Positions 12,549 through 14,832 of a stretch of 64,000 nt of DNA are shown one piece after another (position 1 is the stretch's first letter; every line of letters begins with the position of its first letter). The notes beneath the pieces are model-generated. The model worked only from the letters and a program-made list of their open reading frames with translations. It made no database searches and was not told where the DNA came from. The stretch is from sequence record PQ666542; one strand, given 5' to 3'. The translations under genes were made by a program, and so were the position numbers. Origin of the DNA: Shigella phage sb4.

Positions 12549-13019
12549 TTAATCATGTTTCCACACCCCATCGGTATTTGACCAAAGTCGCTGATTATCT
12601 GATCCTCGCCACAGCTTTTTGGTCGGAAGATTTTTCTCATACTTCCCATCAATAATAACATCAACATATTTAAGCATTTCTAGTTGTTTAATATCTTCAA
12701 ACTTATATCCTGTCCATAACCAAATGCTTTTATTGGGATAAAGATTTTTTACTGTTTGAACAATACAATGAACAACATCTCGGTTATCAGGATAGAGAGG
12801 GTCTCCTCCAGTTATAGTTAATCCTTCTATATAATCATTATTCAAACATTCAATTAATTGTTCTAGTGTTTCACCAGTGAATGGAACGCCATTTCTAGCA
12901 TTCCATGTTGATTTATTATAACACCCTTCGCATTTATGAAAACACCCAGTAACGAAAAGAACGACCCTGCATCCAGGGCCATTCACAAAATCGCAGGGAT
13001 AAAATCTATCGTAATTCAT
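12549..13019 (-). CDS. nrdG: anaerobic ribonucleotide reductase activating protein NrdG (radical SAM)
   Basis: 156 aa, CxxxCxxC-type cysteine cluster GCFHKCEGC. Confidence 0.9.
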   Translation of the reverse strand: MNYDRFYPCDFVNGPGCRVVLFVTGCFHKCEGCYNKSTWNARNGVPFTGETLEQLIECLNNDYIEGLTITGGDPLYPDNRDVVHCIVQTVKNLYPNKSIWLWTGYKFEDIKQLEMLKYVDVIIDGKYEKNLPTKKLWRGSDNQRLWSNTDGVWKHD

Positions 13020-14832
13020 TGGTGTTTAACCCTATGCATGATTTCTTTATTTTTGCCAAGATTAAATCCACGTTCGTTCGGATTTCCTAAATAACCGCTA
13101 GTTCTTCTTATTGTGTTCATCTTTTTAGGATCAGTTTCTCCACAAATAGAACAAACAAATCCGTTTTCAGTAGGAGTCATTACATGTGTACTTCCACATG
13201 TAAAACACTTATCTACTGGCATATTACCGCCAAAATAATCTAAATGTTGTGCAGCATAATCCCATACAGCCTCAAGACCTTTTAGGTTATTTTTCATATC
13301 AGGAAGTTAACAAAAGAAATGTGTCCACCTGTCGCAATGAAATGATACGGTGCTTCGCGAGAAATCATTTCAAACGGGGTGATATTTTCTTCTACTGAAA
13401 CATGGAAACTGTTAGTGTACCAGCCTTTATCAGTAACATCCTTTACACATCCATATTTTTTAGTATCAAGTTTACAGAAGCGATAACAAAGGTTTTCAGC
13501 AGGAGTAGAATACAAGCTAAAAGCAAAACCAGTTCTTTCAGACCACTGCTTAAGACGAGCATTCATTTTAGTTAAAATTTCCTGTCCAATATTATGTCCG
13601 ACAAGAATATTCAATTCGTGAATTCCATTGTATCCCAAAGACACTGAACTTCTACCTTTTTTAAATAACTCAATTATGTCGTCATCAGGTTTAAGACGAA
13701 CCCCGAATGCACCTTCTTGGTAAAGAATATGAGCTACAGTTGCTTTAACACCCTTTAAATAACTAATTCTACACATCAAGGCTTCAAAACACAAATCCAT
13801 TCGTTCATTAAATAGCTCAACAAATTTCTGTTCATTGAACTGTGTTCCAATATAATAATCTAACGCAATACGAGGAAGATTCAGTGTTACAACACCAAGA
13901 TTATTACGTCCATCAAGAATATCATGAACAGTTGAATCTTCCCATACACTCAAGAAACTACGACAGCCCATTGGAGAAACAGGAATAGATGAGCCGGTGA
14001 TAGCTTTATTGTTCTTAGCTGAAATAATATCAGGATACATTCTTTAGCTTGCACACTCTAGAGCAAGCTGCTTAATATCATAATTTGGATCGTATTTATA
14101 AAGATTAACACCTTCTTCAACGAACATAACAAGTTTAGGGAAAATAGGAGTTATCCCATCACGACCAAGACATTTGATACGATTTTTCAGAATTGCTTTC
14201 TGAATCATTCGTTCAGTCCAGTCAGTTCCCGTACCAAATGTAATTGTTACAAAAGGCGTTTGTCCATTTGAACTAAAGAGAGTATTTTGTTCATATTCAT
14301 AAGCTTGGAATGCATCGTATACGTCTTTTTCTGTTTTAGATTGGGCGTAATTCAACGCATCAGCGATTTGCCATTTTTCTGCGTCCTCAATATGTTTTGC
14401 ATAGGTGCGTTTAACATAAGGAGAAAGTACTTTATCTACATTCGCAAAAGTCGTTCCGCCATATTGATGAGAAGCAACCTGTGCAGTAATTTGTGCCATA
14501 ATTGCAGTAGCAACGCCGATTGATTTAGGAGTTTCAATCTGCGCATTACCGAGCTTAAATCCGTTCTCAAGCATTCCTTTTAAATCTACTAAACAGCAAT
14601 TAGTAAATGGAAGAGCAGGGGAATAATCAATATCATGGAAATGAATAATTCCGCTTTCATGCGCTTTCATAATAAAAGACGGGACCATATTTTTGGCAAT
14701 GTGTTTAGACACAATACCAGCCATAAGGTCCCGTTGAGTTGGAAAAACACGAGAATCTTTATTAGCATTCTCGTTTAAAAGGTCTTTATTAGTTTTATGA
14801 ATCAATCCTTCAATTTCTTTTTCAATTGTCAT
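13016..14832 (-). CDS. nrdD: anaerobic ribonucleotide reductase NrdD (glycyl radical enzyme); in-frame TAA at 14044-14046 and 1-nt frameshift near 13294-13300; no intron
   Basis: Three track ORFs (262+248+93 aa) collinear; C-terminal RRTSGYLG glycyl-radical motif and Cys zinc ribbon; total length 1817 nt = 605 codons minus 1 nt. Confidence 0.85.

Follow-up and report, generated by a model that had tools for sequence, protein, structure and literature searches.

An intron-less nrdD with a nonsense codon and a one-base deletion in a 64-kb phage sequence carrying window-wide private changes

The nrdD–nrdG locus

The locus lies within a 64-kb stretch of DNA, hereafter the window (by which we mean the whole stretch analysed, 64,000 nucleotides), and comprises nrdD, encoding a class III anaerobic ribonucleoside-triphosphate reductase, and the downstream activase gene nrdG. 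nrdD runs on the minus strand from 14832 to 13016. It spans 1817 nt, one base short of the 1818 nt that 605 codons and a stop occupy; a sequence-only reading of the same DNA had given this length and a one-base shortfall, which comparison with 1818-nt orthologues bears out. The gene is read as three head-to-tail open reading frames (ORFs) on the minus strand. The features are listed below with the evidence for each.

12549–13019, minus strand: nrdG (activase, radical-SAM / 4Fe-4S), intact, 156 amino acids; ORF and Pfam.
13016–14832, minus strand: nrdD (class III anaerobic ribonucleoside-triphosphate reductase, T-even type, intron-less); ORFs, alignment with T4, sb2, vB_SsoM_113 and pSs-1, and Pfam NRDD.
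14044–14832, minus strand: fragment 1, codons 1–262 plus a premature TAA (262 amino acids); ORF, Pfam NRDD profile positions 1–233.
13294–14040, minus strand: fragment 2, 248 amino acids, from the native Met265 start to a TGA made by the frameshift; ORF, Pfam NRDD positions 236–476.
13016–13297, minus strand: fragment 3, in the shifted frame, 93 codons long, with the zinc-ribbon cysteines and RRTSGYLG; ORF, Pfam NRDD positions 480–562 and Gly_radical.
14044–14046, minus strand: premature ochre codon TAA, from AAA (Lys263); alignment with relatives.
13308–13309, minus strand: 1-nt deletion, falling in codon 509 (Glu); alignment, in which none of the five relatives shares it.
14294–14295, minus strand: counterpart of the insertion site of the group I intron in T4 nrdD (gene position 538|539), contiguous here; reconstruction of the T4 splice junction, and Rfam.

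The three fragments cover the Pfam NRDD family (PF13597) between them, with E values of 1.6e-65, 2.7e-62 and 1.6e-17 for fragments 1, 2 and 3, respectively. Fragment 2 matches residues 265–509 of a T4 NrdD crystal-structure chain (E = 2e-152); the T4 NrdD crystal structures are 1H78, 1H79, 1H7A, 1H7B and 1HK8. Fragment 3 matches Gly_radical (PF01228, E = 7e-15) and has both the CxxC...CxxC arrangement and RRTSGYLG. The locus therefore contains what marks a class III NrdD, namely a full-length NRDD domain, a glycyl-radical motif with a four-cysteine metal site, and an adjacent nrdG, except for a single uninterrupted reading frame, which is broken by the TAA at codon 263 and the deletion at codon 509.

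nrdG matches Fer4_12 (164 bits) and Radical_SAM in Pfam, overlaps the nrdD stop in an ATGA and is free of any change private to the window. mobC is absent between the two genes. A promoter and terminator scan of 12400–15400 returned nothing above the shuffled expectation. The locus is best read as an ordinary intron-less nrdD–nrdG operon of T-even type in a Tequatrovirus.

Absence of the T4 intron

nrdD in the window is collinear with the intact, intron-less 1818-nt coding sequences of sb2, vB_SsoM_113 and pSs-1. In the T4 record, a 1033-nt intron follows gene position 538, and we reconstructed the splice junction for comparison. The exon alignment that the earlier reading had called for places the homologue of the T4 insertion site at 14295|14294 in the window, where the exon–exon junction is contiguous. 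The second check that it had called for, a search for the group I core, gave a concordant result: Rfam found no group I intron in the whole window at the gathering threshold and none in 12800–15000 even at E ≤ 10, whereas the same search applied to T4 as a positive control recovered RF00028 at 105 bits. An intron-containing nrdD of the T4 type would have an RF00028 core inside the gene; none is found there, and the length of the gene leaves no room for one. The claim that this nrdD is without the T4 group I intron is thus upheld both by collinearity with intron-less relatives and by Rfam.

The significance that the claim seemed to carry is another matter. Of 50,697 phage records, 27 contain the intron sequence of T4 nrdD, and these are essentially T4 itself and its nearest relatives; about 690 phage records contain a close homologue of the 3′ part of nrdD over its full length. 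In the best 40 phage matches, 2050–2052 nt align to the 2051-nt query, so nrdD is contiguous in all 40. That T-even phages differ in which of the T4 introns they carry is textbook matter (PMC2988022). An intron-less nrdD is the normal state in this phage group and is hence not noteworthy.

The private changes within nrdD begin at gene position 544, 6 nt beyond the site at which the intron is inserted in T4. We considered a link between these changes and intron homing and treat the proximity as a coincidence, since clean and noisy patches alternate over the whole window.

Lesions in nrdD

The nonsense codon that the sequence-only reading placed at 14044–14046 is indeed in frame. Codon 263 is AAA (Lys) in T4, sb2, vB_SsoM_113 and pSs-1 and TAA in the window, where a private A>T substitution has occurred at 14046. 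The one-base frameshift that it proposed is likewise supported by alignment and moves the 93 codons at the C-terminal end, zinc ribbon and RRTSGYLG included, into another frame. Its position and nature need correcting. On the gene strand, the relatives read GTTGAAC where the window reads GTTAAC, so that the G of GTT-GAA (codon 509) is missing. The deleted base lies between 13308 and 13309, not near 13294–13300, which is merely the overlap of the old and new frames (ATGA); nor does it come from a run of C residues, being, on the plus strand, the lone C in GTTCAAC. The polarity of both lesions is plain: the relatives share the intact state, and the altered state is that of the window.

The two lesions are accompanied by many lesser ones. 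Against four relatives, nrdD has 29 differences private to the window, all at gene positions 544–1764, the first 543 nt being free of them. They fall on codon positions 1, 2 and 3 in the numbers 11, 10 and 8, with a transition:transversion (Ts:Tv) ratio of 8:20. There are 21 private amino-acid replacements, many of them radical (G221C, D247Y, G302V, P368H, I402N and V536G, for example). One of the 21, C579S (codon 13097–13099), lies beside the radical glycine, so that RRTCGYLG in the relatives has become RRTSGYLG in the window. Taken alone, nrdD would resemble a decaying pseudogene.

Neither lesion was found elsewhere: the strings bearing the frameshift and the nonsense codon are absent from IMG/VR, a 35-mer across the frameshift is absent from GTDB genomes and a 26-mer across it is absent from JGI metagenomes. 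The intact string is present in seven IMG/VR contigs. Exact look-ups of three proteins encoded in the window, namely fragment 2 (248 amino acids), gp46 and NrdG, returned no match on record. The 3′ part of nrdD has at most 96.8% identity to any of the about 690 phage records that contain it.

Private changes across the window

The window is collinear from end to end with Shigella phage sb2, in a single alignment at 97.2% identity. To separate changes private to the window from ordinary divergence, we compared it with sb2, pSs-1 and UGKSEcP2 over all 64 kb, and with EPIMAM01 and T4 over the first 41 kb only. Against these three to five relatives, the window has 711 private substitutions, about 1% of positions. 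Inside ORFs, they number 180, 184 and 262 at codon positions 1, 2 and 3; the synonymous share is 35%, and 35 are nonsense changes. The differences that the window has in common with at least one relative behave quite otherwise, with a codon distribution of 134/88/654, 74% synonymous changes and three stops. The Ts:Tv ratio is 0.81 for private and 3.3 for shared differences. In a neutral simulation with the private spectrum, 21% of changes are synonymous and 48 of every 711 are stops. A mixture of two components implies that about three quarters of the private changes are fully unselected, and predicts about 31 stops against the 35 seen. The bulk of the private changes bears no mark of purifying selection.

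Their consequences extend well beyond nrdD. Private stops are found in gp62 (two), gp44, gp47, nrdD, gp49, lysozyme e (two), gp5, gp6 (two, adjacent), gp7 (three), gp10, gp12 (two), gp13 and gp14, among others, many of these being essential replication and baseplate genes; examples are the stops at 1817 (gp44), 15104 (gp49), 51482/51484 (gp6) and 52661, 53792 and 55160 (gp7). TAA, TGA and TAG all occur among the private stops, and nine ancestral residues are replaced (E, S, G, K, L, Q, Y, C and W). When the ORFs of relatives (at least 100 amino acids) were mapped onto the window, 22–26 in-frame stops were met in about 17,000 codons; the same mapping between natural relatives, as a control, gave 0–3. 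The window has about 70 large ORFs, of which 19–21 in all are disrupted, nearly always by an in-frame stop. The earlier statement that nrdD contains the only indel-type disruption among the conserved genes holds for private indels inside long genes, of which the nrdD deletion is the sole case among seven private indels in 64 kb (mostly intergenic), but it conceals this much larger set of genes broken by stops.

The private changes are patchy: 18 bins of 500 nt are empty, against 0.5 expected. The empty bins take in nrdG, the 5′ 543 nt of nrdD and, at about 37–41 kb, a tract of 4 kb that is essentially identical to pSs-1. The spectrum is AT-biased, C↔G changes are nearly absent (6 of 711), and the per-base rate of change at G/C positions is about 1.8 times that at A/T positions.

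Against this background, nrdD does not stand out. At the window-wide rate, a stretch of 605 codons would be expected to have 1.1 nonsense codons; one is observed. As many private changes as in nrdD, or more, are found in 24% of 1817-nt windows. The 3′ 1279 nt of the gene are denser (27 private changes, against a mean of 14), and 6% of windows of that size reach as many. The private synonymous:nonsynonymous ratio in nrdD does not differ significantly from that in the rest of the window (Fisher p = 0.10). Neither a lesion load or loss of constraint above background nor inheritance of the lesions by related isolates, as would mark a gene-specific pseudogene, is seen. Because the same private, unselected changes run across the whole window, the lesions are not a peculiarity of nrdD. 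Similar lesions in about twenty other large genes, together with the normality of the intron-less state, also remove the significance that had been implied for the combination of intron loss and disruption.

Origin of the lesions

The explanation that we favour, and hold to be very probably correct, is a sequence error or perturbation spread over the window and overlying a normal intron-less nrdD–nrdG locus, rather than anything in the biology of nrdD. K263*, and most likely the 1-nt deletion as well, would be part of the window-wide scatter of private point changes, and the underlying genome would be an ordinary one, overlaid by errors or perturbation in the sequence string (an assembly or consensus error, or another non-biological alteration). 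Without a clamp loader, without endonuclease VII and with half its baseplate gone, a phage could not multiply, and it is therefore improbable that the string faithfully reproduces a viable genome. Since a phage with exactly this sequence could not be viable, the changes are best read as errors in, or perturbation of, the string. We infer, on these grounds, an artefactual cause in preference to decay in vivo, with an origin that the deletion probably shares.

The form that such errors would take is constrained by their distribution. Patchiness argues against a simple uniform error process, and the AT-biased, C↔G-poor spectrum looks more like natural mutation than like uniform random noise. As a simple model, uniform or composition-driven in silico noise is ruled out by the near-absence of C↔G changes together with the patchiness. 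Nanopore miscalls at modified cytosines were also considered; the excess at G/C positions would fit, yet neighbouring GC content is at background, indels are rare and no recurrent k-mer dominates. Uneven data quality may explain the patches, the sequence being clean where it was well supported or filled in from a reference and noisy elsewhere. The origin of the nrdD deletion is less certain than that of the substitutions because indels are so rare in the noise; if the noise consists of substitutions only, the deletion could have arisen separately and be genuine in the underlying phage.

It is quite unlikely that the sequence is instead accurate and the whole T4-like genome degenerate or non-viable, as a passive relic, the consensus of a mutation-accumulated or mutagenised population, or a defective particle. 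The private changes do act as neutral mutations, with a nonsense yield near the neutral expectation, and their AT-biased spectrum with very few C↔G changes is natural-looking. T4-like phages are, however, obligately lytic, and without gp44/62, gp5, gp6, gp7, gp10 and gp12 there is no propagation. Nor does the setting suit a relic, as the window is 64 kb of unbroken phage synteny with no host DNA, and megablast found a T4-like nrdD in none of 5,426 complete E. coli genomes and none of 72,556 plasmids. Clean tracts identical to known phage amid damaged ones are more easily explained by uneven data quality. We regard as decidedly unlikely a decaying, non-viable genome, be it a relic kept passively in a host or a population in mutational meltdown, in which about 0.8% of sites have mutated neutrally and nrdD is one of roughly twenty lost genes. 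A weaker variant of this reading is that only the 1-nt deletion is real, the underlying phage then having a true nrdD frameshift.

A true pseudogene specific to nrdD, in a viable phage, is very unlikely. The gene would have been knocked out by the ochre codon and the deletion and would now be drifting, anaerobic dNTP synthesis being dispensable under aerobic conditions. It is established for T4 that nrdD is non-essential in aerobic culture, and both the status of the deletion as the sole private indel within a long gene and the density of private changes in the 3′ 1279 nt, which few windows reach, would suit such a history. Yet about 20 other large ORFs, essential genes included, carry like changes and stops; the number of nonsense codons in nrdD is that expected from the background; its synonymous/nonsynonymous ratio is like that of the rest of the window; the adjoining downstream nrdG is untouched; and neither lesion is present in any other phage or contig searched. 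The window-wide pattern largely refutes this reading.

It is barely conceivable that nrdD functions in pieces or by recoding, with the three ORFs translated separately and assembling, or with suppression or programmed frameshifting carrying ribosomes past the stop and the shift: fragments 2 and 3 do start at native NrdD methionines (Met265 and Met512), the ATGA overlap of ORFs 2 and 3 resembles translational coupling and functional split ribonucleotide reductase (RNR) genes are known, but the breaks are single private point lesions common to none of about 690 relatives, with no inserted mobile element or conserved signal, the fragments carry radical replacements (G302V, P368H and C579S, for example), and, as read from the sequence, neither internal ATG is preceded by a Shine–Dalgarno-like sequence. 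Suppression and a functional three-piece enzyme were rejected on this lack of a ribosome-binding site at the internal ATGs and on the tRNA complement, the 10 tRNA genes in the window having ordinary anticodons, forming the same set as in sb2 and including no suppressor. Stop-codon reassignment was rejected as well, because the 35 new stops use all three stop codons and replace diverse residues, and because the anticodons are ordinary.

With a sequence error or perturbation as the preferred explanation, the biological import of the locus is minor: an intron-less nrdD is standard in the genus, and its disruptions cannot be told apart from the corruption that affects the sequence at large. In practice, the result serves as a warning. 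Calls of pseudogenes, nonsense codons or odd replacements made from this window need to be judged against a level of about 1% private changes, a background that gives about one premature stop per 500 codons, and other findings from the window need re-reading in the light of it.

Comparison with known systems

The closest counterparts are those of the Tequatrovirus phages sb2 (PQ666540), vB_SsoM_113 (LR746311) and pSs-1 (NC_025829), in which the gene order 49–nrdD–nrdG and the 4-nt overlaps are the same as in the window and which, like it, are without an nrdD intron and without mobC. sb2 is the best phage match, with 97.6% nucleotide identity over 2051 nt and 99.6% over the first 538 nt. The difference is that all three relatives have an intact 1818-nt ORF, whereas the window has K263*, lacks one base in codon 509 and shows 21 missense changes of its own. 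The exons of T4 nrdD (sunY) encode the orthologous protein and are 92.6% identical to the window in the 3′ part and 97.2% identical in the first 536 nt. T4 differs in layout, having a 1033-nt group IA intron that encodes I-TevII within nrdD and mobC between nrdD and nrdG, neither of which is present in the window. Finally, nrdA of phage Aeh1 is split by the homing-endonuclease gene mobE with its function retained, and so presents an RNR catalytic subunit as consecutive ORFs, as nrdD does here. The likeness ends there: the split in Aeh1 is due to an inserted homing-endonuclease gene, whereas those in the nrdD of the window are point lesions amid similar lesions.

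Private nonsense codons in the window

Across window positions 1-64000, about 20 large genes carry private nonsense codons, 35 in number, among them gp62, gp44, gp47, gp49, e, gp5 and gp6 as well as gp7, gp10, gp12, gp13 and gp14. Examples lie at 1161, 1456, 1817, 6955, 15104, 35654, 35659, 49406, 51482, 51484, 52661, 53792, 55160, 58064, 59816, 60646, 63268 and 63833. These stops are part of a set of 711 private substitutions, the majority of which are unselected, and this scatter touches all other findings from the window.

Private indels and tRNA genes

Private indels were also observed outside nrdD.

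Other private indels in the window
34393, 1-nt insertion
42519, 2-nt deletion
43383, 1-nt insertion
43399, 2-nt deletion
45789, 1-nt deletion

Most of them lie in intergenic DNA or at the very C-terminal end of a small ORF, a trna.2 homologue, and in this the nrdD deletion differs from them. The 1-nt deletion in nrdD (window 13306-13311) converts GTTCAAC into the palindrome GTTAAC, an HpaI/HincII site; the new site is probably meaningless. Two tRNA genes may be further casualties of the scatter: tRNA-Leu (42235-42322), with a private 1-nt insertion at 42307, and tRNA-Tyr (41724-41810), which scores just 30 bits in Rfam compared with 57-74 bits for neighbouring tRNAs.

Uneven distribution of private changes

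The density of private differences peaks between the 55.6-like gene and nrdH, where 24 fall within about 200 nt (11656-11862), in addition to a 6-nt insertion at 11745-11750 that is a tandem duplication of CAACCA. This cluster may represent a naturally hypervariable spacer instead of the scatter seen elsewhere. In nrdD, the first private change is at gene position 544 (window 14289), 6 nt downstream of the site homologous to the T4 intron insertion point (14294/14295), and the 815 nt upstream, which span the 5' part of nrdD and the 3' terminus of gene 49, contain none. Because clean and noisy patches are numerous, the onset of private changes near the T4 intron site is probably a coincidence.

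Comparison with relatives

A tract of about 4 kb (approximately 36900-41000) contains no private changes at all and differs from Shigella phage pSs-1 by 0-3 nucleotides per kb, whereas outside it the nearest relative is more often sb2 and private changes amount to about 1%. The tract could be a recombination mosaic, or sequence that is reference-derived or better supported. The record of sb2 (PQ666540), the nearest relative, splits DNA polymerase gp43 into two annotated CDSs and has a vs gene that falls 7 nt short of the window copy (record positions 29880-32576 and 62921-63241); thus, public relatives have frame problems of their own.
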